Of a stretch of 64,000 nt of DNA, positions 737-62,431 are shown one piece after another (positions within the stretch are counted from its first letter, which is position 1; each line of letters opens with the position of its first letter). The DNA comes from Patellaria atrata CBS 101060 (taxonomy: Eukaryota). A program made the translations under genes and the position numbers. The stretch covers positions 1,428,455 through 1,492,454 of the forward strand of contig MU006089.1 in the NCBI GenBank assembly GCA_010093705.1, read 5' to 3'. A model generated the notes under the pieces. It ran no database searches. It saw only the letters and a list, made by a program, of their open reading frames with translations, and had not been told where the DNA came from.

Positions 737-1098
737 CAATTTGAAGTTCGGGATAGAGTGAAACCATGCATGGCCTTTGTGTTGGATATTAATAGCAAGT
801 GATGGGAGGGCAGATTACGCATTGAGATCGGCTGTAAGCACTTATATTTGTGCGAGGATAGTTATTAAAAGGAGTGTAAGTTAATGGTCATAAGTAGTAT
901 GGGCATTCATAGTTTCTTGAAAGTAGCGGAGGTTAGATATTTAGATACCTCGCTGCCAAGCACGCGGTTCTTCCCGGTCGAACGACCAACCTCACGACCT
1001 CAAACAATCGAACCTACAGTAAGTAACTCATCAATTACAAAACCCTCTCTCCTCTCCAATCCACCTCACACACATACTCAATCCATCTTGAATACACA

Positions 1099-1723
1099 AT
1101 GGCGCAAAAATGGGGGTAAGTGACATATGTCTGAATCCAATCCCATATTGAAGGAGCTTCGTCGAGCTCCATTCCGTACCGTAGCTCTCTCCGCTCTTTG
1201 CAAACCAACACTGAACCGCACGATACAGTTTCGTCAACCGCCCCAATCGCGTACCCGAATATCAACGTATGTTCCAAGCTCATGATGGCAAGCGACAATG
1301 GGTTCAGGTGCGTCGCTATACACGATCCATTTCCACAACCAAACTCCGCCCGCTCGTACACTCCTAGATTACTCAAGCTCGTTGGTTGCTTCATAATTAC
1401 AACACTACTAAAGGGATTCATAGACTCCTCGAAGCAAGTTCATGCTCTACCCGTATTATGTCATCCTATGGGGAGGCTTTGCTGGTATGCTTCCCATTAC
1501 TTCCTCGACATTTCGCACTAGCACCATCTTCCTTCCTCCTGAAATACGCAGATACTAATCCTTTAATCTCCACCTCAGGCTCGATGTATATGATGGGTCG
1601 CATGACTTTGGTATGGCTCCGGAACGTCCAGTCGCTTCTTGGCAGTTTATATCGGGGTCAAGACTGTTCAAGTTCCGCTAATCAGTCAAATAGGGCCATA
1701 AGACCTGGTTCGGTCAAGGTTAG
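1099..1723 (+). CDS. COX7: Cytochrome c oxidase subunit VII/VIIa, 5 exons
   Basis: Exons 1099-1115, 1229-1307, 1424-1484, 1579-1610 and 1694-1723 with GT-AG introns splice to MAQKWGFVNRPNRVPEYQRMFQAHDGKRQWVQTPRSKFMLYPYYVILWGGFAGSMYMMGRMTLGHKTWFGQG*. The NRVPxYQRxFQ motif and single TM helix are typical of Cox7. Confidence 0.88.
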
Positions 1724-2328
1724 AGCGTGTCAATTCAATTCGGAGATTTTTCATTTGTGTCTCTATTATCGGATGGAAGATATCGTTTACCATCGACACC
1801 TGTACAGAAAGATTTCATCTTATACAAGGGATCATTCATCCCCGGCCACAACCTTCCAAACTTGTCCCAGTGAACTTTTGAACCTATGCAAGGATATATC
1901 ATGTTTACTGTGAACCGATTCCAATGACGAATTTTCCTAAAAAACCGACTACGACAACGCAAACGCATTGAACTACTGTATTAATCCCTACTTCTAACTT
2001 TGTGCTACGAAAAAAATCCTGAAGAGGGATTTCGTTCATACGTGAACAAATACATAGTACTCTGTAATTTTTGTGTACCAGCTTGCTTTACGGTAATACT
2101 TCTTTTGTAACATATCTTTAAATAATTCATTGAGGGAGGTTAAATAAACAGGGCGCATTTGAAGTTATTTACTGTAGTACCTAGCCGAGCTAGTCTATCT
2201 ACCTTACCTCTCGAACTAACACCCGAATCCTCTACCACTACAATATCCCCACATGCAATCCCTTAAGTATCAGCGTTTTTGAAGGTTATCGACCTCATCG
2301 TACTGACTAGCGGACTAGTCTGCTCACA

Positions 2329-3776
2329 ATGGCCGAGTATCTGAAAAATGTCTTTGGAGGCTCGAAGCCATCGACCGCACCCGTAGATGATGCTGGTTAG
2401 TTGCGCTTCAGAAAGTACTCCGAATTACCATTGACCATTCAACTAACTCGGTCGCGTCTCCATAGACTTTGCCGACTATGCTGGTGCTCCAGAGCCCACT
2501 CCTGTTGCTTTTACGACAAACACAGCCGCATCTCCACCGACCTTCCCACCACCGCGAGCTACCTCGAGGCCGTATACAAAGTGGTACCGGGTATGGGAGC
2601 GCACGCAACCTAGAGACTTTTACCAAGAAGCTTTCATCATCCCATTCATCTTGTTAATTGTTCTGATCCATGTATGGGGTACTCGCGCTAATCGGCGCCG
2701 AGCCCACGGCTGGATCAAGGCGCATGCTCCCACTTTGCAGCAGGAGTTCGCTCAGGTAGGGTTTGAGACGCCGAAACGCTCAGATAATGATCAAGTTGCG
2801 CACTCTGATGAAACTGTTCTGCCGGAGATGCTTCTCAAAGAGAAGACGGCCAATGAGTTCACCACGTACGCTTCTGGGCGACAGAACATTGCTTTTGTCG
2901 ATTTGAAGCTCACTTTCGTGAAGCGCTACAACCCAATGGTGCGCTTTGGAGAGGCCGCTATTGGGTTTATGTTTGAGAGCTTGCCTGCTACTATTGAACG
3001 AATGGAAGCTACTGCGTACGCGTTCGATGGGAAAGAGAAAGATCTGGTTGGTTCTCTAGGCGGAACATCTAAATTAACAGGCAATTCGATCTATGATGCC
3101 TTCGTCTGGGCTATCGTTCACAAAGATATGATGAAGCTCCTCCGGGACGATCGTTATGATCTTTCATTGACTGCTACAAAGGATCACCCTAAACTCCCTA
3201 TCTGGGCCACCGTCATGAGCGAAAGTGCAGAGATTACCGAAAGTCTTTTAACACCGGAGCTTATCCAGGCCGTAGAATCTGCCGGCCATGCTTTCGAGGC
3301 TCTTGTCATTTCAGATCAGCCCATGGAACAACCCAAAAAGTAGAGTACCACTCTTCCCTCATTAGTATTCCACGTACTAATAAAAATATCTCAGACTGAA
3401 TGAGACTGTGCCCAAGAAGCGCGTCTCCCTTGCGCTCAAGCTCCCTAGTTCCTCTTCCACTTCTGCGTATACTCGGACGCTCCCCATTTTCCAGTACTTC
3501 CTCCGCTTGACAGACACCCTAGTGTCGCATGGCCGCTTCCGACCTGAAGCTCTTCGCAAAGTCAAAGCGACGCGCGAGGAAGAGATGCGCAAAATCAAAC
3601 GCGTAGATGAAGCGGAACAGAGTGAAGAGAGGAAGCAACAGGCAGATAAGGCTAAGAAAGAGCTAAGAGATCAGAAGCTGAAGAACATGAGTGCAGATGA
3701 GCAGAGGAAGTACTTAGAAAAGGAGAGAGAAAAGGATATGAGAAGGGGTCAGAAGAGGAAGACCATGAAGGCCTAG
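2329..3776 (+). CDS. CCDC47: DUF1682/CCDC47-family ER membrane protein (PAT complex subunit homolog), 3 exons
   Basis: ATG 2329; introns ~2396-2465 and ~3340-3394. Contains PYTKWYRVWER, one TM helix, YASGRQN, FVWAIVHK and VMSESAEIT, plus a basic coiled-coil C-terminus (LSADEQRKYLEKERE-like). Confidence 0.85.
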
Positions 3777-4243
3777 AGCCAGGGCTCCCGATGAGTCTAC
3801 TTGCATAAACTATGTAAGCTGTGGTTTGGGGCAGCCTGGGAGGAACGCGAGTGTACAAGTACTATCATGGATTCGCATATAATCCAAAAATGTTGATACA
3901 GCGGTAACCGTCTCTTTGATTGGGGGGTTCTTCCTCACATCTGTACGATAGTATAGTATTTGAATCTCTATCGGTTTACCAGTTTCATCTCGGTTAGAGG
4001 TTCCTAAGGGGTCCCTTTACGAAAGTAGAAGTACGAGTCGTTACTTGTATGATCAATAAATGATCGTGTTCCGCTCCTGTCAATAATTGCGTGTTCTTTT
4101 TCTCAGCTTATTCTGCCATGCGACCTACGTGACGAGCTACTCATACAGAAGGGGATGATAATGTTTGTGGATCTTATAAGGCTACAAAGTTATGGGTATA
4201 GAACCAAAGCACAAAACATCCATAAAGGAGTCTCTAACATGAG

Positions 4244-4972
4244 CTAATCCTCTCTGGCCCCATCTCTCTTCACTTCAAAAACTTCCCCTGCCAACTTCCT
4301 GATGTTCTCGTCTTCAGCTTCTCGCAACGCCCTCTTTATGCCTTCCAGCACAGCTTTTGACACCCCCTCCGGGTTGCGGCAACAGATATCTATTCCCGCA
4401 GGCGTGAACAGCGTTTTCGCAAAGTAAGTAACGATATATCCATTCTCTCCCTCCACACCCTCTTCCGCCGCTCCATTATCGTTCCCATACCCGATAACTT
4501 CCCAGTGCGAGCTCGCGATCTTCAACCACCCGACACCGCGCCAATTGTACGCCCAACCATCCTTCGTCACCCTCTCGCCCTCCTCTTTGGGAAGGCCGGC
4601 CGCTTTATTCTCGACTTGAGTTTTAACGCCGACACCTGAAGTAGAGACGGGCGTGTCAATCCCATGAACATTCTTCACTTTTTTGCCGTTGAGAGCTTGG
4701 TAGGTCACCATATCGTCAAGCTTAGGGGTAGCGTCAGAGTCTAGGATCTTGTACGTGATTCGGACGTTTCGCTTTGACTTCCACATGGGGAGCGAGGAAT
4801 GGGTGACGTGCCAGGTGGCTTCGAGCCATTGTGGTGTTGGTGGGTTTAGATCAAGAGGTTGGGAATAAGGGGATGCGAGAGGCGGACGGAGGGTTATTGG
4901 TTTGACCGTTTGGGTTTCAGACTCGGAGTTTACTTGAGGAACCGTTTGCGAGATGTCTTCGTTTTGGGACAT
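4244..4972 (-). CDS. Conserved fungal lipocalin/calycin-like protein
   Basis: Intronless 242-aa ORF with WHVTHSSLPMWKSKRNVRITY, LDDMVTY, WRGVGWLKIASSHWEVIGY and TYFAKTLFTPAGIDI; the beta-barrel fold is inferred. Confidence 0.7.
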   Translation of the reverse strand: MSQNEDISQTVPQVNSESETQTVKPITLRPPLASPYSQPLDLNPPTPQWLEATWHVTHSSLPMWKSKRNVRITYKILDSDATPKLDDMVTYQALNGKKVKNVHGIDTPVSTSGVGVKTQVENKAAGLPKEEGERVTKDGWAYNWRGVGWLKIASSHWEVIGYGNDNGAAEEGVEGENGYIVTYFAKTLFTPAGIDICCRNPEGVSKAVLEGIKRALREAEDENIRKLAGEVFEVKRDGARED

Positions 4973-5242
4973 GGTTTGTCAAGTCTTCTCCCTCAATTGA
5001 AGTTGAAGCAGTTCGGTGCGTGGTTTGGCCTCACCCCGGCATATGCTCGGGTCCAGGACTGTAGTAATATACCAGCTCAAAACGAATACGGATTCTATAC
5101 GCAGCCTGTCTACACAGTATAAATACACAAACATTCGCTATAGCCCCAGGCATCACAGTATTTCGTATCTAAGGTACGTGGAGATCAAGGATAAATCAGA
5201 AGGCCTCCAATCAGCTGGGTATCAAAGGGACACATACACAAC

Positions 5243-6403
5243 TCACGTCCCGTTTCTCGTCCACAGCAAGCATACCTCATCTTGCTTCTGTATCTCCTGA
5301 AATTTTTCTGTCCCTGTATACCACCCTTCGTCCGTCAATTGCTCTTCAAGTTTCCGCCAGTACGACAGTTTGCCCTCCGTAGGTTTTGGGTCCAGGTCTG
5401 CTAGCCTTGCCTCAACTGGCCTGTCGCAGTCACCGGAAAAGCGCAAAAACATGGAGCAATCCCTCAAGGTCATGGCGAAAGCGAGTTTCTCCAAATCCGG
5501 GGCGATTCCCATGGCTCCATCTGGGTCAAACTTAGCTTGTAAGTCTTGTAACTGCTTGAGCAGACGCAGTCCGTCCCCAGAACCGGTGAAGTAAGAGGTC
5601 AACAGATTGATGATCCGATCCTGACTGCACAGAGCGTTATTCTCGAAAGAAACGTGTGCGGTCTTGAATAGGGTCCGAATGACTGGTGTAACAAGCTCTT
5701 CGTCGTCCGACACGAGGGCCAGTGGACAGTAGAGGTGCACCCTACCGCCCCATTGACGTTGAGGAGCTTTGCAGTTGTCCCGAGCAGCTTTCGCGCAAGT
5801 TCGACATCTACGAGCGTTTGGGGGCGCTGTAGGTGATTGAAGTAGCCACTTTGGCTTCATCTCTATTGTGTAGACGCCTTCTGCAGGAGCCAGCATGTTT
5901 GGCATGAGCATACCGTGTAAGTCTTTTACTGAGATGAATTGATTGAGACGTTTAGTTGGACGGATACCATCGTCTTCTAGTTGCTTGAGCTCGAGGTTTA
6001 AAGCATCGATGATGCTCGGATGGCATATGACCAACTCTGAGCGAACGATGTCATCGCTCTCGAAGTTCTTTTTAATCGTACGATGGTAGCTGTCGACGGA
6101 AATGCTGGAGATATTGTCCTTTCTCAAGCGCAAAAGTTGGTTGATCCAGGTCCTGTGAGCTGGATCGATTGTTCCTTGAGCCGATGGTTGTATGCGATAC
6201 AGAACATTTGCTCCTCCCTGTTGCGAGTGTGAGCAACTATATATATTGATGGGATAGCTTATGTATGATTGCCGGCACGAAATGAAATTTACATTTGACA
6301 TTACCTCTTTGTGGTATTCAAGTACTATTTCTGACTGCTGTTGATATTTTCTACCCCTTGGGTGAATGGCGGGCGGGTCCCCGTCTAATTGTGCCTCTAT
6401 CAT
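5243..6403 (-). CDS. IPK1: Inositol-pentakisphosphate 2-kinase
   Basis: Motifs EGGANVLY (after removing the 87-nt in-frame intron 6218-6304), EMKPKWLLQSP, RRCRTCA, YCPLAL, AMTLRDCS and LADLDPK. Confidence 0.88.
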   Translation of the reverse strand: MIEAQLDGDPPAIHPRGRKYQQQSEIVLEYHKEVMSNVNFISCRQSYISYPINIYSCSHSQQGGANVLYRIQPSAQGTIDPAHRTWINQLLRLRKDNISSISVDSYHRTIKKNFESDDIVRSELVICHPSIIDALNLELKQLEDDGIRPTKRLNQFISVKDLHGMLMPNMLAPAEGVYTIEMKPKWLLQSPTAPPNARRCRTCAKAARDNCKAPQRQWGGRVHLYCPLALVSDDEELVTPVIRTLFKTAHVSFENNALCSQDRIINLLTSYFTGSGDGLRLLKQLQDLQAKFDPDGAMGIAPDLEKLAFAMTLRDCSMFLRFSGDCDRPVEARLADLDPKPTEGKLSYWRKLEEQLTDEGWYTGTEKFQEIQKQDEVCLLWTRNGT

Positions 6404-6723
6404 TGTAGTTGAAATCCCTCGGCCTTTGGTCTGAGGATAGCTGAAGTATTTTGATCATAGTTGCGGGTGTGTTGGATTGTAACTAGTATTATAGTATATC
6501 AATCATTCAGTCATTTCTTGTTCCTTAGAGTTCTGGTTAGAGTTTAGACCACAAGAGAATCTTTTATTTTACCCAGTTCTACTGTAACGTCGTGCGCCTC
6601 GCGCCCCATCGTTCATAGTCCATCCACGCCCAAAATCTCTCCTCCAGTAGTTTTCCTCCTCTTCATCACCTTACCAATCCATATTCCCTCGTAGCCGCCA
6701 TTATTGGCTATACCGATAACAAA

Positions 6724-10507: not shown

Positions 10508-12752
10508 GATTGAAAGCTTCTCATGCGCGTTACTAGCTTCTTTCCGATCTTTCCATAGTATTAATCCTTCTCGTCGGACGTCTTCCAGGCCAAAGGCGGT
10601 GGCAGAAAGAAACTACCCTAATGAACAAACTCAACAAACATCGACCCCTTGGATCGCGCCCTTCTTTATTAAATCCTTGATCTAATCCAACAAGAACCTG
10701 AGACGAAAACAATCTCAACTTCAAAACTCGCCATAAGTTCCTTTGCTTTCCCAAAGGGGATAAATTAGAATTAGTTCTTGCGGATTTAACTGCTCCCCAG
10801 TACGTGATTACTTAACGTATCAATAACCGCAACTAATAGTCGAAACTCCTTTCTCATTAATAAGGATACCTAGACTGAGATCATTACTTCCACAGTATCG
10901 ATTATGCACGTTTCAATATATCCTGCATCCGTAAAGCGCATAGCATGTCAAGCAGGTGACTTGGAGCTCTCCACTCCACTGTGCCCCTCGAATTTCGGTG
11001 TATATCAGCGACACATGTCATCCTTCCTTTGGCTTGTCTCAATTGAGGTCCAAGATTTAAGAGGGATTCAAATCGATATTCATCCGTACTTCCGGACATA
11101 TTCTATTCGATATCTCAAACCGGTCGTATGGCATCTATGGCATGCTATGATAGGAGCAGTACATTTGCTTTTGGTCTTGTGTTATTTTTTTGCCGATTTG
11201 CATGATAAGAAGAACCATCTCTCGTCATGCTACTTACAGTATAATTTTATATTCAACCGTCATGCTAATAATGTGATAAAGCCGACCCGCTCCAGCAACC
11301 GGGCTGCTTGGCATAAGGCAGACTTTTCCATTCTCCAATGTCTCGGATCAACGTTGAATAGAGGGTTGAAAGCTCCAACAAGTTCTCGAAATTTTGACTG
11401 GTTACTGGTTACCAGTTTCGTGGAAGTTGCCGTGGAACGGAGGCTTGGGATTCGGGATTGGGGAATTGGATCGAAGCATTTATCATTAACATTCCATCAA
11501 CAAGGCTTAATAATCCGTCTAGAAATGAAAGACGATATGAGGTAGATGTACCTCGTGTCTGGTTTCTGCAAGCATTCATATTTGTAGGTAATGTATTGTC
11601 ATCAAATTGGAACAGAACAATTTGACTGTAGAACTAAGGTAGTTCTACTCTATAAGTTCTTCTACTCTAATCGTCAGAAACAACTGCACTGTGCCGTACA
11701 CAACTCCAGGCCGTACGTGTATGTGTCTAGAACTTGTACTGTACAGTACAAGCACTGCAACCCATCAGTACCCAAGAAGCGGCCAGGGCAACTTTAAAAG
11801 GAATGCTTAAATGCATTAAAGACGAATGGATGAACTTCATTTCAAAATAATAATAATTGGAATTTCGTGCCCTAATAAGAGACCCTCAACTTCAGTATCC
11901 GCATTATTATCAGTTCCCTTGGTTGTTGCAGGTCCAACGCATCGACAGGCATCCCGTCCGCAATCACACTGTATTCTACTCACGCTCTCACCCACTCTCA
12001 CACTCTCTCGCAGTCTCGCAGACTCTACAGACGTCAAGGTCTTGTCTCTTGTCTATAGGCAATCACGTCAGGTGTTACTCCCCAAGGGCCCCTTCGATTG
12101 CTTTACCTTCAAAGCCCTTACTTATTAGTGAGAAATGAAAATAATTCCTACCTTATTTATGCATCCAGAGAAAACCACCATAACCTAATGCCGTCAGCAG
12201 ATCAGCAATTGATAGATGCAACTATGTGTCCAGTGGCTGGATCAAATCATGCAGATAGATCCCATATTTCAGTCCTGATGATGGGAGTTATTCTACACTA
12301 TCATCCCATCCATATATCTACCAGTTCTAACTTTGTGTTGGGACTCTTTCCTGTCATCCTTATCCTCCTACCTTTTAGAAGTACACTTATGCTTTGGACA
12401 AGAACTTATACCTACCTTACCTACTCATTATTGCTGTACAATTACAGCACAATCTAAAGTCAACGGAAGTGCCTCGGGTTTCGTAGCTATCGATAGCGCC
12501 AGGCCCGAATCAGACCCAAGTTACTATATTCTTTTTTTTTCCTTCCCCTACATATCGAACGACGGGAACTGGAAGCGAATTTAAGATACGGTAATTATTA
12601 GAGGTTTACCTTTAGGTTCGAGCAACACTCATCACCTCAACAAAAGTCTTTTCAAGTGGTAAGGTAGCCGTACTGTGGTAGGAAATTGGACACTTGAGGT
12701 AAGCAGCACCCTCTTATAGCTTACGAGTTTTACTGTACGAGCACCAGCGAGA

Positions 12753-14314: not shown

Positions 14315-14948
14315 AGGCGCTTAGAACTGTGGCCCGTGTCGCTCGATGCATTATTCCCTACTCAGGTGGGGGAGATATTGTTCAGTAAGACTTCCATGAT
14401 TTTGGTTATCTACGGTTCCTCTTTGTCTGGATTATAGGGGGAGTTTTGGGCTCATTTTATAGATTTCTACACTCTCGCGAGGAGGACATGCGATCTGCTA
14501 TTTGGTGTTTTCCCCCATTGCTGTCTTACTTGATTTCCTAGCTCACACGACGTCTACTAATGTTCACCGCAAAAAGCAAACATCATTCAACTCCAAGCAA
14601 GGATAAAGGAAGATGTCGAAACCTAACTACGATAACGTATACCCTTGTATTGATACAACGTACTGTACATTACATAAGCTGTTTCAAAAGTTTATACACA
14701 GCCTTAGGTTATGATTAAGGTACCTTAGGTTAGTGCGAGTTAAAATATCTGTATTTTGCCAAGATCTCCAGCTCCCTTAAATTGTTATCTCCATTCCTTC
14801 AGGTTCCAATCTTTCATTTCGACTTTATCCTGTTATCTATAACTGCACAGCCGCCCTCATAGGGCAGCAGAAATTAGTTGATAGGTAACAGACACGGATC
14901 TTCTCGTAAGTACTTTACTTGTCTTTTGAACTTTTCAAGAATATCTTT

Positions 14949-21801: not shown

Positions 21802-21835
21802 TACCTACCTTACCTACCTTACCTACCTTACGGTA
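21802..21835 (+). repeat. (TACCTACCT)3 tandem repeat ending in TACGGTA
   Basis: Read directly from the sequence. Confidence 0.9.
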
Positions 21836-22434
21836 TGATCGTACTGTCAGGGTTCTGCGGTGTTACAGTATGAGGATGTGAAATTGAGTTCTAAAGTGAG
21901 ATCAAGATTTCCGACAAGGGTTTCGAGGTTTCAAAAAAAATCGACCGGAGATAAGGTCAGATGTATATCCTTGCGGCCACGCAAAACTGGCTGCAGATGG
22001 AATGGTCGGTAGATAGGCTCACGCATGGACTGGGTGCATAAGGTGTGTGCGGTAAGGTGCTTTGTAGAAGCCCAGCAAGTGAAGGTACCTTAGGGTAGAG
22101 TAGTAAAGAATATTTTTTAGTGTGTCCCGTCAAATCTCGGTCGAGTTTCTGTCGGTCGTCCTTTTCGGAAATCTTTAAGGCCACGGCCTTTGATATGAGT
22201 GGCGTCGGTGGCGTTTTAAAGCTGATGGGATGGAGTGAAAGTGGAGGTATGGTTGAGGTAAGGTTCATTTAATTGATAGTTTGATAGGTAGGTTGATACC
22301 TTATTACGGTACTCATAGGTAGTCAGTTCCTCATCGCTCTTGCTCTCGCTAACCCTTCGTAACCTCTCTTTCCTTCAAGCCTCAATACAGTAATAGTCCT
22401 ACCTTACCGTACTAGACATTACGGAAATCAGGTA

Positions 22435-23706
22435 CAGTCAGCCACAAGAAGTCAACGTCCATGCGCCGCTATCACGTGATTGAAGCGAATATTTTTCATA
22501 ATTTCTTCTATTCTTCCTCCTTTTCTATTATAATAGCTATTTAAAATATTATATAAATTAAAAATAGTTTATTAAAAGCTTATAATTAAATAAATAAATA
22601 ATAATATAAAAATAATAATATAAACTTTCTATTATATAAATTATTTAAGTTTTAAAATTATTATTAAAATTTTAATATTATATTTTAACTATTTAATATA
22701 TTATTATATAAATAAAAAAAAATTTAAAAAAGTTTTAAAAAAAATTAAAAGTTTATTAATTATATATTAAACTTTAATTATCTTTTTAAATAAATTTATT
22801 ATTATTATAGCCAAAAGTTATAGAAACATGTAGTGGGCAAGTGGGGAAGGAATCCACCACTCGGCACAATCACGGGAGGAAGTCAGTGCCACGAAGGTCA
22901 CGTGATGTGATCGATAGTCGAGTGCTCGAAGGGTTATCGAGCAGCGAACATTGAGCACATCAAATAGGACTGTGAAGAAGGAATATCTAAGGACGCTCCT
23001 TTACACATGTATTTAGATTCTTCGCAGTTCTTCTTACCAACTAATTTAGATGTTACGATTTTAACTTACCTCACCTTTGTCATACTATGTTTGTACAATA
23101 TCACTTGTCTCTATTGTGAAGCCTTTGAGAGAGAGTTAAGGGGAAGCAAGTCATACCGTTGACTTGAAGTGTAAACCTTTACACGTTCTATCCCGAAGCG
23201 GAAACCTAGCCTTCTAGGAAGGAAGTCTCTCACCTATGAGAAACCTTGCGCGTGTTTATCTGGTTTCGGCTTAGAGAAGTATAAACTCCCGTTAGTAATA
23301 ATTATAGAGTTCTTACTATAAATTGAAATTAATAATAAATTGATATTAATATTTATATTTTTTATATTAAAATAGTTTATTTAATTTTTTAATTTAAATT
23401 TAATAAAAATTTTTAAAATTCAAATTTTAAAAAAAATATTATATTAATTTTAAAAATAAATAAATTTAAAACCTTTTAATTAAATTAATTATATTATAAT
23501 ATAAAAGAGAAATATAAAATAATTATTAAAGTAAATAATAAATTATTAAATTATAAAATTATTAATATTAAATTTACTATTTTTCAATATAATTAATAAT
23601 CTAATAGCTTATTAACTTAATATATTATATTTATATAAAGCTAGTAGGGTTAATATAAGCGGGATATATAAGAATGGCACGGATGTTAACTTTCTATAGC
23701 TAACTG
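22435..23706. mobile_element. Non-autonomous, RIP-degraded Tc1/mariner DNA transposon
   Basis: Left end CAGTCAGCCACAAGAAGTCAACGTCCATGC; right end (reverse complement) CAGTTAGCTATAGAAAGTTAACATCCGTGC. These ~30-bp TIRs differ only by transitions. TA duplication at 22433-22434 and 23707-23708. Interior 22520-22810 and 23295-23640 is almost pure A/T. Confidence 0.85.
22829..23183 (+). mobile_element. LTR-like sequence (355 bp) nested in the DNA transposon, followed by ~105 bp of possible internal leader
   Basis: Normal-GC island inside AT-rich DNA. Starts TGTAGTGG and ends CCTTTACA (imperfect terminal inverted repeat). No matching TSD (AAACA vs CGTTC). Confidence 0.55.
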
Positions 23707-26700
23707 TACCTTGAAGTTGTTGCCCATTTCCCTGAAAGAGCTGCCGGGCATGATCCCCCTGTGGTGGGTTTAATCCATCACCCGATTATTATTGCATGAA
23801 CTGCAGTCTGCAGAACTTGATACGGCAATCAACGCTGGGACCAAAGACGGGATCGGAGAAGTTCAAACCCCTGAAGCCAAGCCGAGACTATGGCGTCTTT
23901 GGTTGCTTTGCCCGCCGTGTCCACTACCTTTTTCAGGTTAGAACTATCTTACCTCCCAATCAAACATCTCAAACGATTAAGGTAGTTCTACATGTTACCG
24001 CTGAAAGCGATTATTAGAAAAATGGTTTTGGAAGGATTTTGTATAGTCTTTTGAGGCTTTTGCACTCGTGAACACCTCCCCGCACCCTTTTGGATTCTGT
24101 CTTTACAGCCTTACATTCAAGTTTAGATCCTGTCGTGTTATCTTTAGTTACAGGAAAGAAAAGCTACGTTACTGTACCCGACAGCTCCTCCGCTAAGGTA
24201 AGGAAGGATCGGGACGCCCGTAGCGAGTTTGCTTTCCCCGTTCTCGGGATAGAACCTAACAGATACCTCCAACATCCACACCGCACCACACCACACCAAA
24301 TCACACCAAACCACACTCTTCACTGTCATTTATACCCAGCATTCTTCTCTTCACTTTTATTTCTTGCTTCTATTCACCGCCAAATCCACAAAATCAAATT
24401 GGCTTATCACGCTATCCTTATGGTGCATTCGATAGAATCATTCCTAATTTGACTTGCCTTTCCGTCAACTTACCAAACGTCCCCCCTCTCCCTCCCACCA
24501 TGGCTTTTCCATTCATCAATAATCGACAAGCCCCTGACACTCCACAGTACCTTGATATCTGTCAAAGGCTGAAAGCTGTGCCAACCGAGAACCCCGCTCG
24601 GAAACTTCACTCCCACGTGGTGATATTCCCTCAAGTGCGCTGAGTGATCAAGGCCGTATTACGTGCAGTGTGACGACCACCGACCACAATGTCAGCCACG
24701 ACGACTTCAGGCGTCCAGTGGGTGATTGGATTGGGTCTGGTCAAAGGTAAAGGACTGGTCAACATGTCGAGATGCTCCTCTACCAGGCCACCGGGGCACA
24801 ACCTCAGAACTGGTTTGTGCGACTAAAACCAGTTCTCCTAGGAGTTTTGGGAAGCTGAAGGATCAATGAATACTAATGAGTTCGGTGCTAAACAGATGAT
24901 GATGCTTGAGATGGCCAAAATGTAAAGAGAACCTGAAGCGAATCAATAATGATCGGGATTAGTTCTAGATGAAGGACATGACGATGTGAAAGATGTATGA
25001 AGATACGGCAAGACCCAACCGACTGCGGACCAAGTTAGATGATCATTCTTCACTCTCCTTGTTATTATTCCCGTCCGGACATGCGAAACTTCAACCGTGC
25101 TTCATCGTACTTGCACTGCAGTTACTACCTTACTCTTGCTACTAGTACTGCTCTGAAGAGTGAAGTAATTGTACGGCAGTCCCGATGCCATGATACCATG
25201 ATGCCTGTGCAGCCATGTGTTTCTAATTTCTCACCATCTTAATATCTCTCATCCTCGCCTTGCCACGAGGTACCCTTGGACTGGGACGTGCTGCAGTCAA
25301 ACCTTGCCTTACCTAAAGTTACCTTAACTACCCTCACTGTATTACATTACCGTCTTGGCACACGTCCAAGTCAGCTCAGTCCGGGTGTCTTATACTCGTG
25401 ATACTTCTTCGGTTCCATATCAAATCCTGTGCTACTGTAGTCTGCTGTATCATTCGTAATCCTCTTCAATGTTCGTCCTCGACGCTCTTCTCAAGTTTTA
25501 GTTCTACTACAGTCTGCAGATTAGCTATATGTCAAAGCTTTCTTCACCTCTTCTTTAGGGTTAATAACACTTTCCGCGATGATGGACTTGTTACGCATGA
25601 AGTATCCGTAGGTCGATAGAGTCTGTTCAGTTGAGCTATTTGAACAAGCCCTGGGCCGTTCAACCGTGTACCCCTTTGCGACGCAGGTGAGCTGAGACTT
25701 ATCTGAGGTTTGAGAGTCCGGCAACTCCGAACTATACAACCGGGGAGGGTGCTCTACTCTAAAATCACTTCTTTGACCCAGAATCTCAATTTGAGATATC
25801 TATCCCCCATTACAATGCACGATTCCCGGTCCGACCCAGTCACTCGAGGCTCGATCCACCCGTACGTTCTGAAACTCTGACTATAATCTATAACTGTACC
25901 ACTATCTGAACGAGACGTGGGAGACAAACAATATTTGCCATGATCCTTTGTCCACTAAAAATACTAGACGATACTCTGTGCGACTACTATGAGCAATCTG
26001 AAGCGGAATCGGAAACACATCCGGCAGTGCTAACATGCAATGGTCAAAACAACTTGAAACGAAAATTGTACGCCTCGATTTTGAATCATCAGGCAAGGTT
26101 GAGTTCGAGGCGTAGTGCGCCGTACTGTATTCATTCAGAAAGGGTTTGTCTAGCTTCCTCCGCCGACCACTGTGTATTCCCTTCAGTCATGATGGGAAAG
26201 CACCAAATCATAGCTGACCCATTGAACTGATCAGTCCGAATGCTTCCCTTGAACGTGCAGTGAACCAGAACGCTCTAACACGGAAAGGGTCACATGGCAA
26301 CAATAGGTAGGCGACGTCGTCGTTCCCGTCGCCTATTTCCAAACGTAATTAAATAGCAATGTACCTTAAATCGATCAGCATTGCATATGAATTCGAATGG
26401 AGATATTGAACGTATAAGACTAGGGTAAGCGAATAGACAGTCAGTTCAGCTACAAGAGCCCTACATACCCTGAAATCCACTACATATCTAGACCCCTTCG
26501 GTAGCATCTTTGACAATCTTATTTGCTTCGCTGTCTTCTGACCACATCCGCATGGGTTCGCATGCCACTTGGTGCTAGCAGACTTTCAATAATTGCGGTG
26601 AAGACATTTGGCTTTCCCCTATCTCAGATGCTCGTCGGGGTCAAGATGGTCGTCTCCATCCACCTCTCGTCCGGCATATTGACCTTACTGTCGCGCCTAG

Positions 26701-31940: not shown

Positions 31941-34729
31941 TTCTGTCCAGGTCTGTTATGAATAAAATCCAGTTTATGTAACTGGCTTGTGTAGAGAGAA
32001 ATGATCTGGGTGACCACCAGCTATATCTGAAGTTGACCAACCTTTAAAAAGTTACAGACAAGATGCTGCACCAAAGGCGGCTAAAGATGTGTATCACATC
32101 ACTTTGTATCATAGCACAGCCTCTCAATGCTCCGCCGTTGGAAAAGTACTGGAAATTAGAAATACGTGCAGCGACATATACAACTTGAAGTCGATGACCT
32201 AGGACTGGCAGAAATAGCCCTAATATCTAGGATATTGCCCGGAGTATGCCTCATCACTAGTTGATGCGAAGTACAAGGTTCTCCGATAAGTATGGAATGA
32301 GAGACCATTTTCAACAGATTTAATGGAAGATCTAAGTTTTGTTTGATGGTGACATGAGAACAAAAAGGTTATCAGCGCAGGGTACCAAGATATCTTGCGA
32401 GATGAAGCAGGGAAGGCAACAAACTCGTAACGGAAGAAGACCAATTAGGTATGTAGAAGACATCCATTGACAAGAAGATTCCTCGTCAAAGATTTGTACT
32501 AGTGGCCCGCAATAACCTCGAAAAGCAATTACGACGTGAAGAAGACAAAACCCGATGTAGATTGGAGGTTAACCTGGAGGCAAGGTAGGTAGTATCACTC
32601 GTCCAAGGGGCCGTTTTCGTTCGCGAGCAGACTACTACAGGTTGCGTGTTCGCCGCTAAGCCGGTAGTTCTAACGTTCCTGCGTTGGGATGCCTCTTTGG
32701 TAATAGGATAAAAGAAAGAACTGAACAGATGGTTTTCCCGAGACTACTGTAAAAGATGATCTTCTCTCAAGGGGGAAACTTTCTGCTTGCCCGTTGGCAA
32801 AAAGTAACACAGGTAAGTGTATCATTATTATTGCCGCCTCGCCATATGATCATGGAACTCCGCTGTTCTTGATTCATGAGAAAATACGAACTAACCAGTC
32901 ACGGTGTCACTCCCAGTTGAATCTTCATCGTAACCATGGAGATCTAGGGTTTGCGAAAGAGAGTGGGGCCAAAGCCTTGATGCTTACAGGTACCTGGAAA
33001 GGGTATTCACTCCGTAGTCCGTTATAGACGCCACCGAAGAGTTAAAATAATCTCTAGAGTGATAATGTAGATATCTGTTGGTAGTTAAGCTTCTCTAAGT
33101 TACAGTATGGGGGGTACTCTCAGCGTGAAGTGAGACACAGAGGGAGAATGGAAGTGATTTCTCTGCCAAGATAACCGAAATTATACGCTTACCAAATATA
33201 AAATGTACATGCGTGAATATTTCAGGGGGTCCGACTGCTTAATAAATTAATAACAATAACTACTCCTCAGAAATATCGTGTCGAGCAATGCTGACTGTTT
33301 ACTTTCTTGAGAACAAGCACCTGCTATAGAAACAGAAATGGACTTGGAACTGCTCAAGCCCCGCCCGGCGAGCGAAAAATTTAGAGTGAATTTCTGTCCA
33401 GGCAAGAGAGCAGAGGACAACTGTAAGCTGATGAAGGCTGAAGAAACGAGGAAAATATGCTGAAGCATGGAAAGGCAATGTACCTTCTTTCGGCTATGAT
33501 AACTTATACGACGCCTTGGTAGTTCGAGAGAATCGTCCAAGGACTTACCAATGAGAGAGTGTACTGGACAGAGTAGGTACCAACAGAGCATCCATAAGGT
33601 ATGCTTCAGAATGACGATCATTACTAAAAGATGAACAATCTTTTGTACATTGTCCTTTCAGCACGTGGATGGTAAAAGCCGTCATAATACTGTAGGACGA
33701 TATCTACTGAAAGGTCCTTCGGTTGCTTCTGCTATCAAACGATTCTTCAATCTCTAACTTACGAAATTCTTTTTTGGCGGCTGTGCCTTGTGCAGCTTAG
33801 GTTGCTTTGGTTTCATTTACCACCTGTTGCATTATTGGCGATCGATTTCGATAGCGGCGGGTCTTGCGGGTAGATCCAGAGGCCAAGGGGGGGTTTAGGG
33901 GGTGCGCCATCAGGGCATACAGTATGTCCCCGAAGCCCGAACTCCAATGCGCTAAGGTACCGGTACTACTCCTGCACGCACGGCACGGTTACGGTGCCCT
34001 TGGTGGGTTGGTTGTCAGGGGTGAGGTGATTGTACTGTACTGTGGAGTACCTCTGTTCTAGTACATTACTGGGCTGTGGGCAAGCTGGAGCGCTGGACTC
34101 GCTGAAAATGCCTGCTAGTAGCTGCTGCTCTACTATAATACCAACAAGTCATCCTTGCCTCCAACTCTCCAAATGCCTTCTCCCTGAGCTTTAAGCGAAC
34201 TCCCGTCGTAAGAAATCATGGCTCCCCCGTACCTTATCCAGATCGTACTTTATATTTCGTACCGTACAGTACTGCACATACTACATACCCCGCTCAAATT
34301 GCTCCACCCTTTCGATGTGGTGTAACCTGTATTTAATAAAAATGAATACAATCGCCCCTGTAGTCAGTCATCATGCCCCTATCAAATGAAGAAGGCAGGG
34401 ACACGGCATATGCTCCTTCTATAGATGCAACTCCGGGTGTTGGATTTCCATTTCGCTCTTTCCATTGACGGTTTAATTTCATGTAGGGCTGGGGATGTGT
34501 AACTCTTTGTGCTATTCAACTCTCGTATGACAGTTTCCGAGCGGTTGGGGACCACTCTAAGACCTCTCTCAGACCTCTCAGACCTGGCCTCAACCCGGGG
34601 CTTCCACCGGGGGGTTACCTGCCCATCATGCCCGCCCTCGCCGCCGAAGTCCCCGGCTCTAGCAGTCTCCCTTGAATTCTCTTGAAAGTGCTTTACGGAG
34701 TAATGTTTGAATCTCGTCGGTTCGGCCCT

Positions 34730-44252: not shown

Positions 44253-45470
44253 TTGAGGGTGTTGCGCGAAATCGTTGAAGCCCATGGGATGCAAGGTGTG
44301 GTGATGTTCCTGCTGTACAATGATGATGCAAATCCTGTGATACCGATTACTGTACAGTACACTGATATGTACGGAGTAGTAAATCTTGAATCGCTGTGCA
44401 CATCCCCGTATTTCATTTACATCAGCAACCGATGGCCATGGGCAAGGCTGTACTTCCTGCTGAAGTGCCCCATAGCAACAATATTGTTGCCCGTTGTAGC
44501 CACTGAAGAGAACTTTGCACCGAGTGCTCCGCTAGAACTACATGCACTCATGCAACAGGGCCATCAGCGCGGAATGGCTCCCCTTTCGGAGGGAGGGTCA
44601 GCACCCTATCTTATTGGCGAAACAAACATCCTGAACTTGCTTCTTCCCTTGCGCCTTGAATTAATAGAGCACCCTCAAGGCGGCAACCGAGGATCGAGAG
44701 AGCAGTTAAAAGGATTGGTCAGGGGGGAGATGCAAAGTCATAAAGATATGGTGATCGAGATATAGAATTACAAGGATTGCAGAACACTATTGCGGCAGTA
44801 TAGATTGGAGTACAGCATCAGCCCCTTAGATCTGCTCTGGGAGGCCGCTTTTGCGACCGCTGAATCGCTGACAGACTTGATGGAATACTCGATCTGCCAC
44901 ACCTACTCACTCTAGTGGGCTGGTCTATCTTTGCACTGTATGCTACCTCTCAGATTCGCGTCATTTTCGAAACTTCGCCCATCAGATTACTGCCCAGCAG
45001 TAAATGGTACAGTAGAAGGCAGCAGTCAAACCTGTGTCAAGTTGATTTACAACGGGTCCGGCGACCTCCAGGGTTGTCTATCACAGCTATCATCTCTGCT
45101 TTTGGTTGATAGTTATTTGAATCACAGTTCTACTGCCTACCCGCCTCGTGTTTTGAGCAAAGATTGATGTCACACATGCGTCTTAAGGGTGCTAATTGGA
45201 TGCCCTGCTTTGGGGATGGCGCACCGCTGGTAATTGCTTTTCAAATCGGGCGTGTGCTTGTAGACGACAGTGTAAGTGCTGCCGGTGAAGATGCATTATC
45301 GTTTACTGTCCCTGAGATCAGAAGTAGTAACCATATCATATCTGTTGCAGCTGGAGTTATTGCCTAAAATCCTAGCTAACAGATGAGATCAATGCCCATT
45401 ATGCAAGGAGATAATGGCGAGGCAATACTAGCAAGGCTGAAAACGAAGTATGCGTTTGTGATGCGAACCG
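44253..45470 (+). pseudogene. Probable decayed ankyrin-repeat gene
   Basis: Fragments across several frames resemble the ankyrin consensus: GMQGVVMFLLYNDDANP, LKGANxxxxxGDGAPLVIAFQIG, GEDALSF, MPIMQGDNGEAILARL. Stops and shifts lie between them. Confidence 0.3.
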
Positions 45471-47576: not shown

Positions 47577-48156
47577 AATGGAAGAACTCTGGTATTAAGC
47601 AACCCACAGCGGTCCAGTTAAGGCCTCTGTGAACAGCTGACTGTGGACAGACAAAGAAAAGGCTCCAAGAAAAGTTCAAGTTCCTGTGGATTATGGTAAA
47701 GTAAATTTTTCCCGGGTCCAAGCGTAGTGAAGTTTCCAACGAGTCCAATTGGTTTCCGGTATCAAGAGAGCAATTCGTCGGCGAGCTCGAAGAGGGAAGA
47801 GGGGAGAAAGGAGGAGAAGGATAGTCGGTGGGGAAAAAGGGTAATAGCTTGTAAGGGAGAGAGAGTGTGTGTGTGTGAGTGTGAGGTTGAAGAATGAATA
47901 CCTTACGGTAGGTTCTTTGGGATGATGTAGTCTTCTTCAATAGTGAGGCGGATGGAAGGGTATGATATGGTGAAGGGTAAGAAGAAGGCTAAAGAGGCTA
48001 AGACAATCGTTCTGAAAATAGGAAGGTGTTGACGGACGAGAACAACAGAATAAGGCCCCAAGAGTGGCCCACTTATGACGAAGCCGGTAGTTAATGCATA
48101 CATACATGTACACATAATAGCGAAGGCACTGGGCCACCCATGGGCTCTGCTGGCTA

Positions 48157-57180: not shown

Positions 57181-57736
57181 GTTTTTATCTCAACGCTGGT
57201 ATATATAAGGTCCCTAATAGGGTACGAGTAGGTTCATTCGGTACACCGCTAATCTTTTGAGGGCAAAAGGTCTGATCGGGGAACCAATATTCGGGGGAAA
57301 CGGTCGCATACTTGTAGTAACAGCGTAAAATCGGGTTCAAAGGTGGCTATGCGCGTGATATGTCCCAGCTAAAGGTTGACGTTGGAAATACTTAAATATT
57401 ATTGGTCCACTTGAATGGCTTATACAAAAAGCCCACAGTAGGAAATACTTGAGTCATACCAAGTCACTTTATCCTTACGGTGACTGTCTACGACCACCTG
57501 ATTACAAGTTTGAACACGGATTTCATTGTTCTCCATACACCATGCAACGGGCGGCGAGGACTTGATACATACAATTTTGACATGAAACCTGAAGATTGAC
57601 GAACTTAAACCTGACGCTCAAAGACAGCAAGACGTCTCCTTTTACAGATCCAAATATCCTACAGTTGCTCATAAAGTCATTCATACCTTTTATGCACGAT
57701 CCCAGATGCCACAAATCATCAAACCATTCAATCTGC

Positions 57737-60700
57737 TCAACAGTTCTGCAAGTAATTACTGGGCACCAATCCCGGCCTTCCGTTCTTCCCTACAACCTCA
57801 GCTTCCCACCAACCGTCGTCTTGGAGCCTCAGGACCGCCAAGATATCTCCCTTTGCGAACGACAACTCTTCAGGGATAGCAGCTTGATACATATACATCG
57901 CCCTCGCTTTGTTAAAGTTAGCACATTGCAAGCGAACAACTAATAGATGGACTAAAGAACACTCACAATAATGCAAAATCGGACGTCCATCCTTAGTGTA
58001 CTGTCTCGGCTCCGCAACACTCTTGCTCCTCATCCTACTTACCTGCCCTCCACCACTCCATCCAGGATCTCCTGACCCACCTCCGCTACTACTACCGTAG
58101 TAGCTAAGCGGTCTTTGTCCCGCAGATGAGCCTCCTCTTTGGCTCCCACCGTACACGGAACCTTCAGAGGGAGCTGGTGCAAGCTGCAACGCCATATCGG
58201 AGCCCCTGCTGCTGCTCGGACGCTCTTGCTGTCTGAATTGTGGCGCCGGCGACACAGCGCGCGAAATCGGCTGTTGCGGCTGTCTTGTGAACTGCGGTTG
58301 GGGAGAGACAGCTCGAGGCTGCTGCTGCGGTTGCCTCGTATATTGTGGTTGCGGAGACACCGACCGAGCTTGTTGCTGGGATTGCCTTGCGTATTGCGGT
58401 TGGGGCGATGCCGCTCGAGGTTGTTGCTGTACTGACCTCGTAAACTGTGGTTGTGGAGAGACAGTTCGAGGCTGCTGTTGCGCCGGCCTCGTGAAATGGG
58501 GCTGGGGTGAAATAGCTCGGGGCTGTTGTTGTACCGGCCTTGTAAGTTGGGGTTGCGGAGAGCTAGCTCGGGGCTGCTGTTGTGCTGGTTTTGTAGATTG
58601 CGGCTGTGGTGAAGGAGCCCGAGTTTGCTGCTGTTGCGGAGGCCTGGTGAATTGGAGTTGTGGAGACAAATCTTTGGGTATTTGCCCGGGTGATCCACCT
58701 CGGGAGCCATAGCTTCCATAATCACGAGGCTTGATAGGGCTGCTCGACTGAGCGCGGGGTCGGTTGTTGGAGGCTGCGGAGTACGGGTTGGGGGATTTGG
58801 CTCGTGACGGTTGCTGTTGCTGTTGCTGTTGCCCGTGAGAATCGCTACCATAAAGAGCTGGACGTGGACTGACAGATCGAAGAGGAGCGGGACTTGCTGT
58901 GCGAATGATTTCTTGACCACCACTATTTGCTCTGGTAGCGGGGCGGGAGGGTGAATTGCGGGACTCGTAGGGCACCCGTACGGGAGTATTGAACATGTTT
59001 GTCTTCTGATCGATATATTTTTGCGTTGTCTGCTGCATCTGGCGAGCCGTAAATGCTGGTTTCGGTGCGCCTAGCCTACTGACTGGTTGTTCATAAGAAG
59101 GAGGGGGTGTTCCACGTTGGGCGGCGCTTATGGTGCTGTTTCCCAGAGACGTTGGTATCCCCCCAACTGGCGTGGAAACCCCTGGAGTTGCAGGCGGAAT
59201 AGGCGTTGCAATTCCATGATATCTATCTGCGGACTGCCTTGTCGATGGTTGTTTCGTCGAGGCCTGTTTTGTAACTCCTTTTAGTTCAGCCAATGCCTGT
59301 GCTATGGGGTCGAGCTCCTCTTGAGTAGCTGGATCCTTCCTCGAAGCCTTTTGAATATCTGGGGAGGCAACATCGAAAACATTATTTCCAATATTTAACT
59401 GAAAATTGGCGCGTGGATCTATTGGCTCAGGACTTGAAGTCCTCCCGTTTCCAAGAATTGACCCTTGACCGTAAGAGCGTTGAGTTCCGTTTTGGGTTGG
59501 TCTAGTTTGAGTTGAGCTACCATTATTCATGTTTCTCGCTGTTGATGGGCCCCAGGTGTTGCGATTCGCAGGAGAAATGGCGGATGCGTCCTTATCATGC
59601 TTGCTCCTTCTCCTAAACGGGCTATGTGATTGGAAAAATCCACTCTTTTTCTTTTGTATTGATTTCTCATCACCGCTCCCGGATACGGCAGAGCCGTTCA
59701 TCTGTTTTACTGGAGATATAGTTCCGCTAGGTGGCTCCATGCTAGAGAATGACGTAGGGTTGGAATATTCACTCTGACTGTCTCCGCTCGGAGGACGAAC
59801 TGGGCTCACGACGGAACTACGCTCTGATGGCGGCCCAATACGGCAGAATTGCGTCATCCCATCCATTGGGTACTCGTTGTGGGGAACTTTTGGAATATCG
59901 TTGAACTGGACTTGGGATAAGTCGATAGGCGTTTGTCCAGAATACGAGACCGGAGGTGCCGACTGTTTGGATTGAATGGGTTGGGTGGATTGGGTAGGTT
60001 GAGTTTGAGGAGCAGGAGATGGCTCTTTACTCATTGGTTGAGGTGAGTGCTCTTTATGACCAAACTCCTTAGCTAAAGGATGATTGGGATCGTGATGCGA
60101 CTCGAAAACTGAAGGTTGAGGAGAAGATGTTCGGAAAGCTGGGTTCATAGTCCTTTGGAACTGTGCAACGGAGTAATTGCCCTCATCCGAGGTATCAGAC
60201 GCATTGTCATTAAGGTCTCCCCGACAAAAGTTAATGAATTTGGGAGGATCGGGGATCTCCTGGCCGGTTCCACTTTCGCGGATGAAACTGTAGATATCCT
60301 TTTCAACGTCGCAATCCTCTAGAGACAGTCGAATCTTCTCGCATGACTAAAGTGGAGGTAAGTTTTTGAAACCCAAAACAACTGGGTCAGCTTACTGCAT
60401 CGTCGCTTACGCAAACAGTAGACGCAATGTTCGCAAAAGTCCAAAGACTACTCTTCAAAAAGTCTATACGCTCCTCTTCGAGATCCTGGAATTTCTAGTC
60501 ATCACAGTCAGTGGTGAAGAGACGGTTGGGAAATATAAATCTTACGTCGCAACCGGCTTTCCAGTCCCGGTTCCATCTACCGGTAGTCTCTTCCACCATC
60601 TTCACAGCGGCCTCATATTCACTACTGGTGGTGGACAACTGGATCTGCGTCTTTTCTAGTTTGGCTTTATTTTTACGTTCTTCTTGACCCATGACCATAT

Positions 60701-61350
60701 GTCCTTGTGCAAGATAGCCCTTGATCTTGAGACAATCCTGCTCGTATCGATCTCGTGCCTATCAAACTTGGTTAAATACAAGTTTAGATACCCTTGTGTA
60801 GCTCACGGACCTTGTTCACCGCAGTTGTCTGTTGCGTCTTGAGCTTCAGAAGCTTCTCAATACCATTCTGGACGATTTTTCTTCTTTCCTTCATCCCCCC
60901 TGCAAATGCTGCTAGCGGTTCTTCAAGCTCACTCTTCATCTGCGCAGCAATGTTTTGATGTGCTTTGCCCATTGATTCTACTTCGGTTCGAATAACGTCT
61001 AGGGACATACGTAGAGTTCCAGCTTCGGAAGAGCCGAGAGGCTTTCGGGATAGGTTCAGCAATTTCCGTGAGTATTCATCTTCGATGGCGGCGCGCGCTG
61101 AGAAAGGATTAGAACTCATACTGGATAGACACGAAGATTAAATTGGGAAGTACCCGTATAAAAGGATTTTAATTCGTCGCAAGTAACCTTTGCATTGTGC
61201 ATGCGCTCTAGCAGAGGACTGACACCGGCGTCATCTTTGCCCCAGAAATTGTTCGCGACTACGTATGATTAGCAAACAACATATGTGATGCTCTCGACAT
61301 TCCTCACAGGATAAGGAGACGGAAGGCGGCTCAGAAGTAGCCGCGGGCAT
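57737..61350 (-). CDS. HOF1: F-BAR/SH3 cytokinesis protein (Hof1/Cdc15/Imp2 family), multi-exon
   Basis: MPAATSEPPSVSLS|FANNFWGKDDAGVSPLLERM; ARAAIEDEYSRKL; FQDLEEERIDF; TGQEIPDPPKFINF; C-terminal SH3 AMYMYQAAIPEELSFAKGD...DDGWWE...GLVPSNY. Confidence 0.93.
58223..58678 (-). repeat. Coding minisatellite, ~9 x 51 bp (17 aa) within HOF1
   Basis: Units of the form QQQPRAVSPQPQFTRxx are visible in both protein and DNA. Confidence 0.92.
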
Positions 61351-62431
61351 GGTGCCCAGTGTGGCTTCTCTAGATAGATCTCAGTGAGACCACAACTTAG
61401 GTACCAGTGGATAAGGTAGGATGTGTAAAATAATTCTGGTGTTTCTTCAATAGCGTTCCGCAAATTATCGCATAATTAAGGTACTCGTTAAGTGATACGG
61501 TTGGTAAGGTCGGGCGGGTATGGGGTAAGTCCAGGTCAGTAACAAAGTAAACAAAGTCCTTGGCAATTTCTGTCCATAGCAACGGGTATCTTAGAGTCGA
61601 AGATCCATTGTTTGGATAGTTTGCAGAAGTTTGCATAGTTTGCAACGCCACTCATGACTCCATGCCCGAAAATCTCGATTCACGTGACGTCCGTTTCTTC
61701 ATTTGACTCTCCACTGTCTGCTTTGGGTTCCATTTCTGCATATTCAACGACCTTCCTTCCTAGGACTCGAACAAACGAGTCGCATTCGTGAATGATTTAC
61801 TCACCTTCTTTTGAGGGGGAAAAGGGAGTAACTGAAGGTGTAAGGTATATGACTGACCATCAGGTACCGCAGAGTGAATGCTTATACCTAAAAGAAAGAT
61901 TTCGTATACGGTAATCATGCAGGCCATCGCCTTCTGAAAGGGACCTACCTGGATTCCCTTTCGGTATTGAATCTTCTTATATTCAATGCTGAAGAGCCTT
62001 TGAAGCGCGCATCTAGCACTTGAGACCGGAACACTTTTTAAACGTGCTGAACTGAATCGCAATTGAGGATTGATTGATTTTCACAGGTTATCGTGCAAGA
62101 GTGAACGCCCACGCATGTAGATAGAATTGTTCGTTTGACTCCTACCTATGCACAAAGGTTAATAATAATGAGTAACAAGTTTGTAGTCATGAGCTGCCCA
62201 AGAGCTGAGTTGAGGATGCTTTGGGCTCGCGGCGAATTTTTTGTCTTACTGTAGCCGACAGACGTTCGATTTTGAGCCTCCCCCATACATTACCTTACTT
62301 ACTCAGACCCTAATAAGGCGAACCACCTCACGTCCACCGTTAAACGTTCACCCTCTCCGCCATCATTCCTCCTCGCCATCGTCCTCCTCGTCCCTTTGCA
62401 CAAACCTCCCCTTCCATCTGCTGCGAGTCCG

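Follow-up and report, generated by a model that had tools for sequence, protein, structure and literature searches.

Accumulated excision footprints of Tc1 and Fot/pogo transposons as the probable source of the leading short words in the non-coding DNA of Patellaria atrata

The non-coding DNA of the fungus Patellaria atrata CBS 101060 is rich in short words in which a core of three to five bases is enclosed by two TA dinucleotides. We analyzed these TA-core-TA words in a stretch of 64,000 nucleotides (contig MU006089.1, positions 1,428,455 to 1,492,454 of the forward strand), hereafter referred to as the window, and in the 28.7-Mb genome assembly of 127 contigs to which it belongs, and conclude that they are very probably accumulated end-joining footprints left by the excision of several Tc1 and Fot/pogo transposon families. 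A preliminary description of the window had proposed repeated insert-and-excise cycles by several TA-targeting families, a proposal supported here by the enrichment of the words, the match of their cores to resident transposon ends, insertion alleles among repeat copies, and the stacking of words through shared TAs. Its attribution of the words to Tc1/mariner elements was right as to the kind of footprint and is refined as to the source, with much of the signal appearing to come from Fot/pogo-like elements, which are treated as a separate superfamily in the available text of PMC7386202.

In the window, we counted 41 TACAGTA/TACTGTA, 39 TACCTTA/TAAGGTA and 14 TACCGTA/TACGGTA words, in agreement with the approximately 35, approximately 35 and dozen or more originally estimated by eye. 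Sixty dinucleotide-preserving shuffles performed in blocks of 500 nucleotides yielded means of 5.5, 7.1 and 4.5, and maxima of 11, 17 and 11, for the CAG/CTG, CCT/AGG and CCG/CGG words, respectively. CAG/CTG and CCT/AGG words occupied the first two ranks among the 7-mers of the window under Markov models of orders 1 and 3, and ranks 1 and 3 under a model of order 2. Two further classes, absent from the preliminary description, were added by the present analysis, namely TAGAACTA/TAGTTCTA (TA-GAAC-TA class; 11 occurrences versus a shuffle mean of 2.2) and TACGGAGTA/TACTCCGTA (TA-CGGAG-TA class; 6 versus 0.3). Consistent with the claim that nearly all words are intergenic or intronic, 91 of the 94 words of the first three classes lay outside the coding mask, a home-made hexamer model which called 31% of the window coding and thus missed some exons.

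The same words were in excess well beyond the window. Non-coding counts were obtained from a pooled sample of 664 kb (600 kb from 60 places plus the window), 42.5% of which was called coding by a home-made model, after masking of AT-rich and tandem DNA. Observed and order-2 expected numbers were 207 and 56.5 for CAG/CTG, 191 and 53.2 for CCT/AGG, 89 and 43.3 for CCG/CGG, 62 and 12.8 for GAAC/GTTC, and 18 and 3.0 for CGGAG/CTCCG, the first two being the top two of all 8,192 seven-mer classes. As anticipated, the excess persisted against Markov backgrounds of orders 2 and 3 trained on non-coding DNA alone, and it was found again in an independent 200 kb of the genome (CAG/CTG 65 versus 21, CCT/AGG 51 versus 22, CCG/CGG 28 versus 19). 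Word densities, each given as outside versus inside coding DNA, were 6.3 versus 1.0 and 5.2 versus 0.5 per 10 kb. Altogether, each kb of non-coding DNA carries about one word in excess, which extrapolates to about 17,000 words genome-wide.

The words are exact, in that substitution at any position brought the count in the 664-kb sample down to near background. The halo of one-mismatch variants was 164 against an exact excess of 150, and 115 against 138, for the two leading classes, and 99 against 49 for GAAC; a halo about the size of the exact excess fits words that were made whole and then underwent steady neutral decay. The two orientations of each core were nearly equally represented (CAG/CTG 101/106, CCT/AGG 100/91, CCG/CGG 44/45, GAAC/GTTC 26/36, CGGAG/CTCCG 11/7). 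A TA was required on both flanks in all five classes, and other d-NNN-d frames, where d is a dinucleotide, displayed no independent excess.

Words were moreover stacked through shared TAs. The common TA began another word in 59 of 566 cases (10.4%), compared to about 4.7% of nearby TAs and 2.2% overall, and chains in the 664-kb sample exceeded expectation whether direct (13 versus 1.8), inverted (8 versus 1.8) or formed by words of different families (38 versus 9.1). Genome-wide, the double CAG/CTG chain occurred 582 times versus 11 for its reversed control. The mixed chain found at position 1388 of locus L020 (L numbers denote our loci) reads TA-CGG-TA-CTCCG-TA-GTTC-TA-CCG-TA, and all six chains cited in the preliminary description were present in the window (Table 1).

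A profile search of the genome returned 21 DDE_3 and 66 DDE_1 transposase matches, all 21 of the former and 50 of the latter being examined for element ends. TA-flanked elements began with CTG, ACGT, AGG, GAAG or GACGT. The CTG ends belong to four full Tc1 copies with a transposase open reading frame (ORF) of 345 residues and DD34E spacing, as counted by hand, and the ACGT ends, about 70 in number, to several Fot/pogo-like subfamilies; a terminal-repeat pattern search yielded 21 matches, 16 with AGG and 5 with GAAG ends, and none in the control. One Fot-like element carries an ORF of 624 residues, its transposase combining DDE_1 and HTH_Tnp_Tc5. The core equals the terminal bases of a resident element in the case of the CAG/CTG words (CTG and CAG ends) and of the CCT/AGG words (AGG ends, Fot/pogo-like), and GAAC matches the GAAG ends only as 3+1, with GAA from one end and C from the other; with this partial match counted, resident ends match three of the five classes. 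Both top three-base word classes were among the 5 of 32 classes represented at resident ends (P ~0.02). In support of an origin of the CAG/CTG words from the CTG family, the base preceding unchained CAG/CTG words was G in 42% of cases versus 24% for TAs, and the CTG Tc1 family had C or G flanks at 9 of 9 ends.

The window itself harbors, as had been claimed, an element with CAG...CTG ends (Table 1), flanked by a TA duplication and bounded by 31-nucleotide terminal inverted repeats, 22 positions of which are identical and the other nine all differ by transitions. Its interior is 7-8% G+C, as after repeat-induced point mutation (RIP), and such an AT-rich, transition-riddled repeat, together with the gene content, points to a RIP-competent filamentous ascomycete. 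No trace of a transposase was detected by tblastn in the AT-rich interior, nor was a second copy of the element's left end found. With the element removed, its target (22433-22434, 23707-23708) is a palindrome, AGG-TA-CCT.

Insertion was seen directly when empty and filled TAs were compared between repeat copies of this one genome. In a MITE (miniature inverted-repeat transposable element) family, MAFFT alignment revealed TA-CCG-TA in the right terminal repeat of one copy (L263), the five added bases being missing from that copy's own left repeat and from 6 of 6 alignable siblings. One copy of the AGG family (L157:1879) contains TA-GAAC-TA, the 8 of 8 loci that cover this position having a single TA. 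At one site of a 181-bp repeat (C5:705040-705080), TA-ACT-TA-ACGT-TA is present in one of 65 matches and no insert in the other 64, and two ACGT-ended elements (L070, L072) occupy the very same TA elsewhere; insertion, cores derived from element ends, and stacking are all seen together here. Further ACGT-type alleles were TA-GT-TA and TA-AC-TA at L234, TA-CGT-TA at L069, and TA-ACT-TA at L242, with TA-TA in L246. Eight of 19 non-tandem copy-specific insertions duplicated TA, compared to 4.5% in simulation. One of the eight (L005:252), although counted by the script, resembles an imperfect duplication, five of the other seven consist of resident end letters, and two (ACTT and TGGT) have no exact match to an end. 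L263 is outside the 19, having been missed by the BLAST-based finder. TA-duplicating insertions were thus observed for CCG, GAAC and ACGT-type cores, and the 5-bp insertions at a single TA expected from the preliminary description do occur between repeat copies, TA-CCG-TA among them.

Other searches were negative. A first indel scan limited to young element copies showed no scar, scars emerging once more families had been added; a length-forced search of about 65 bp of a 330-bp repeat gave two matches, both tandem duplications; and no gene was identified whose reading frame had been shifted by a scar. L158:252, a tandem duplication, was not accepted as a scar, and the CAG/CTG variation that AGG-family copies show at a single site is best explained by a point change.

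In the scheme that we favor, an element of the IS630-Tc1-mariner type would insert at a TA and duplicate it; upon excision, a few terminal bases would stay on the flanks as overhangs and be sealed by end joining into TA-core-TA, with the core facing either way. CAG- or CTG-ended elements of the Tc1 type would yield the CAG/CTG words, a Fot/pogo-like family with AGG ends the AGG/CCT words, a sister family with GAAG ends the GAA+C core, and ACGT-ended families a mixture of AC/GT, ACT, CGT and ACGT scars. GAAC, ACGT and ACT would result from a one-base shift in the register of overhang joining, followed by fill-in. Each scar offers two TAs in accessible spacer DNA and would be re-used, so that scars of different families stack; being near neutral in spacers, scars would outlast elements lost or destroyed by RIP and fade by point mutation. 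We infer this assignment of words to families, the overhang geometry and the neutrality of the scars from the patterns described above.

Several results weigh against this scheme. No CAG/CTG or CCT/AGG allele was caught among 23 copy-specific insertions from within-genome repeats, and it is by extension from the CCG, GAAC and ACGT-type insertions that we infer the same origin for these two classes. The expectation that families with matching ends would be present held for CAG/CTG and CCT/AGG. The transposase loci examined yielded no element ending in CCG/CGG or CTCC/CGGA, a search which families destroyed by RIP escape. By our estimate, decay of CAG/CTG words could account for about half of the excess of CCG/CGG. 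The most numerous families, those with ACGT ends, have no enriched word (ACG/CGT 37 versus 36, ACGT 3 versus 3.4), and the same holds for GACGT ends (GAC 40 versus 38); the variety of ACGT scars may explain the lack of a single leading ACGT word. Of 117 living element ends, 8 adjoined a scar word, which exceeds the base rate of 2.2% (P 0.005) and does not exceed the local rate of 4.9% (P 0.22), and mixed chains of CAG/CTG with CCT/AGG were not enriched in the 664-kb sample (2 versus 3.1). GAAC requires a 3+1 joining rule and the sister AGG family a plain three-nucleotide one; about 17,000 excess words, set against some 100 transposase matches, call for a long history; and in rice, clean footprints are rare, with 8 of 94 excisions being perfect in the available text of PMC4423477.

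These gaps leave some room for CAG/CTG and CCT/AGG words being TA-duplicating insertions from a source other than the present families, such as extinct families, a domesticated transposase that cuts with no mobile element, or templated break repair, with the match to resident ends arising by chance. The lack of a direct allele for either class, the few living copies (four full CTG Tc1 copies and 16 AGG ends), the want of a donor for CCG and CGGAG, and an end match whose P is only ~0.02 are all in keeping with this explanation. In the 181-bp repeat, however, end-derived scars sit at a TA which the matching family occupies in other copies, and the flank preference of the CAG/CTG words fits the CTG family; extinct relatives with identical ends would, besides, represent the same mechanism. 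We consider this alternative improbable and unnecessary.

Selection for the binding of one or several transcription or chromatin factors to the words would account for their non-coding location, their approximately twofold regional clustering, and the peak of their density at 300-600 bp from coding DNA. Closer than 300 bp, density was low. The distribution lacks, however, any promoter-side bias: density was alike on the 5' and 3' sides and amounted to 16.2, 17.6 and 18.3 words per 10 kb in convergent, divergent and tandem spacers, respectively. Neither would binding sites be expected to tolerate change at no position, with a halo spread as in decay, to comprise five unrelated cores of three lengths in a single TA frame that chain with each other, or to arise, as some words do, as insertions within transposon copies. 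Some scars may have been co-opted later; as a general explanation, selection for factor binding appears very improbable.

Replication slippage, with the words as seeds or remains of 5-bp microsatellites, has extended some scars; perfect direct tandems contain 37 of 236 CAG/CTG and 17 of 199 CCT/AGG words and include runs of four to five units. Most words are single, however, and slippage cannot produce inverted or mixed chains such as that of L020, would not by itself leave other d-NNN-d frames without an independent excess, and does not explain CCG, GAAC and ACT-ACGT insertions that are not copies of their neighbors. It is thus a most improbable general source. Two 18-bp minisatellites (L014:8821-9193 and L030:3092-3387) are built on a CTG-TA-CAG-TA core and may represent scars whose amplification involved a larger unit.

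That splice signals and RIP mutation produced the excess as a by-product has next to no probability. Although a few words are splice donors (by eye, those at 1015 and 24194, for example) and some words in repeats differ between copies by single transitions, the donor consensus was present on 15 of 212 TAAGGTA, about the share estimated by chance, acceptor-like sequence on 3 of 268 TACAGTA, word density was lowest in intron-like gaps, and AT-rich and tandem DNA had been masked before counting. Splice signals and RIP were rejected as main sources on these counts, and slippage largely so on the mixed chains and insertion alleles.

Two precedents had been invoked for the footprint interpretation. 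That of Fusarium impala, whose footprint we take to be of the CAG/CTG type, was not found in the literature searched. That of Sleeping Beauty stands: its footprint is the 7-bp TACAGTA or TACTGTA in the available text of PMC6943129, and Tc1/mariner elements, when excised, leave behind terminal bases as 3' overhangs, which end joining converts into two to four terminal bases between two TAs (PMC6943129, PMC2874221, available text). The P. atrata words share with these footprints the same 7-bp words, the TA on both sides and, in our interpretation, a core of two to four terminal bases and the end joining. In contrast to the Sleeping Beauty footprints, known from single loci or assays, they are fixed, exceed expectation by about one word in each kb of non-coding DNA, and comprise at least five end types stacked via common TAs. 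The Fot/pogo-like elements resemble those described in PMC7386202 and, for Paracoccidioides Trem, in PMC2836289, in the sections available, by their 1.8-2.2 kb length, their DDE_1 and HTH_Tnp_Tc5 domains, a TA at both ends, and terminal repeats with internal direct repeats. Most Fot elements are given a TAA duplication in the available text of PMC7386202, whereas our empty-site comparison indicates a TA duplication, the A being the first base of the element. Those sections describe no excision scars; here, the scars are AC/GT, ACT, CGT, ACGT, GAAC and probably AGG/CCT. As in rice (PMC4423477, PMC5023962, available text), excision near genes would rewrite non-coding DNA, but rice scars, known from species comparison, are mostly deletions with filler, whereas those of P. 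atrata are stereotyped and lead the k-mer spectrum of one genome. The mechanism is that of the textbook footprint; its scale and the stacking were not found in the literature searched (mostly open-access text, with supplements and the original impala and Fot1 work outside its scope), nor did that literature describe such words as scars distributed across the genome of any fungus.

If the words are indeed footprints, the strongest motifs in the non-coding DNA of a fungus would be mutational scars rather than regulatory sites, a matter of consequence for motif discovery. With about 17,000 excess words for some 100 transposase matches, the past traffic of DNA transposons would be two orders of magnitude greater than element counts suggest in a genome where RIP erases elements. 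Scars would then allow past traffic to be measured, and the rules by which Fot/pogo transposases cut and their sites are repaired to be read from sequence alone. A broader proposition, which we find quite possible and advance tentatively, is that TA-targeting transposons in RIP-competent filamentous fungi are low-copy, hit-and-run elements by which intergenic DNA is continually rewritten, their scars (here, about 1% of the bases in non-coding DNA) becoming the leading short words, each seeding the next insertion, and that from the k-mer spectrum of any such genome one can decode the ends of living and extinct families, their cutting geometry and their relative ages.

Table 1. Coordinates of TA-core-TA words, chains and associated elements in the window
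Feature	Position	Strand	Remarks
Field of 111 TA-core-TA words	1015..62297	.	41 CAG/CTG, 39 CCT/AGG, 14 CCG/CGG, 11 GAAC/GTTC, 6 CGGAG/CTCCG; about one quarter expected by chance
TA-GAAC-TA-AGG-TA-GTTC-TA	11629..11647	+	Read as three stacked scars of two families
TA-CTG-TA-CAG-TA	11737..11748	+	Two orientations; cited previously
TA-AGG-TA-CCT-TA	14716..14727	+	Two orientations; cited previously
Slippage-type tandem run on CCT word	21802..21835	+	Ends in mixed chain TA-CCT-TA-CGG-TA (21824-21835)
TA-CCT-TA-CCG-TA	22400..22411	+	Mixed chain; the decayed element starts about 20 bp to the right; cited previously
TA-flanked decayed element	22435..23706	.	CAG...CTG ends
Multi-copy repeat resembling a solo long terminal repeat (LTR)	22954..23306	-	Nested in the decayed element; at least 80 matches, 288 candidates; LTR label suggested by size and ends
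TA-AGG-TA-GTTC-TA	23978..23990	+	Mixed chain
TA-CCG-TA-CAG-TA	34260..34271	+	Mixed chain; cited previously
TA-CTG-TA-CAG-TA	44348..44359	+	Cited previously
TA-CCT-TA-CGG-TA	47899..47910	+	Mixed chain; cited previously

Further observations concern the transposons and repeats of the genome. At 9 of 42 ends of ACGTGC- or ACGTGT-ended Fot-like elements, CTTAGTCA or its reverse was located 6-16 bp, mostly 11-13 bp, from the target TA, compared to 0 of 76 ends of other families and a chance of 0.0025 per flank; flanks at L060, L061, L063, L064, L066, L070, L072 and L081 carry it. The placement of this motif, which is presumably AP-1-like, suggests that insertion of these elements may be guided by a DNA motif, which would explain the hotspot in the 181-bp repeat. 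Four Tc1-like DDE_3 elements (L040, L041, L038 and L046) have ends that begin with a G run and are without TA flanks. A MITE family present at about 13 places (L104:711-1250 and L258-L265) has long terminal repeats starting with GGGGACTG and an inner run of short repeats; what had seemed to be a CAG-ended element in L104 proved to be coding DNA and was discarded. A dispersed family of 14 copies of about 130 bp (L013:184-320 and L266-L277) displays A-box- and B-box-like words and a T-run, resembling a tRNA-derived short interspersed nuclear element or an odd tRNA; ARAGORN made no call at 13 of its loci, and 5 loci compared with Rfam gave no match. Finally, positions 58267-58678 of the window consist of 51-bp coding repeats, encoding 17-residue units rich in Gln, Pro and Arg, in a protein that ends in an SH3 domain.

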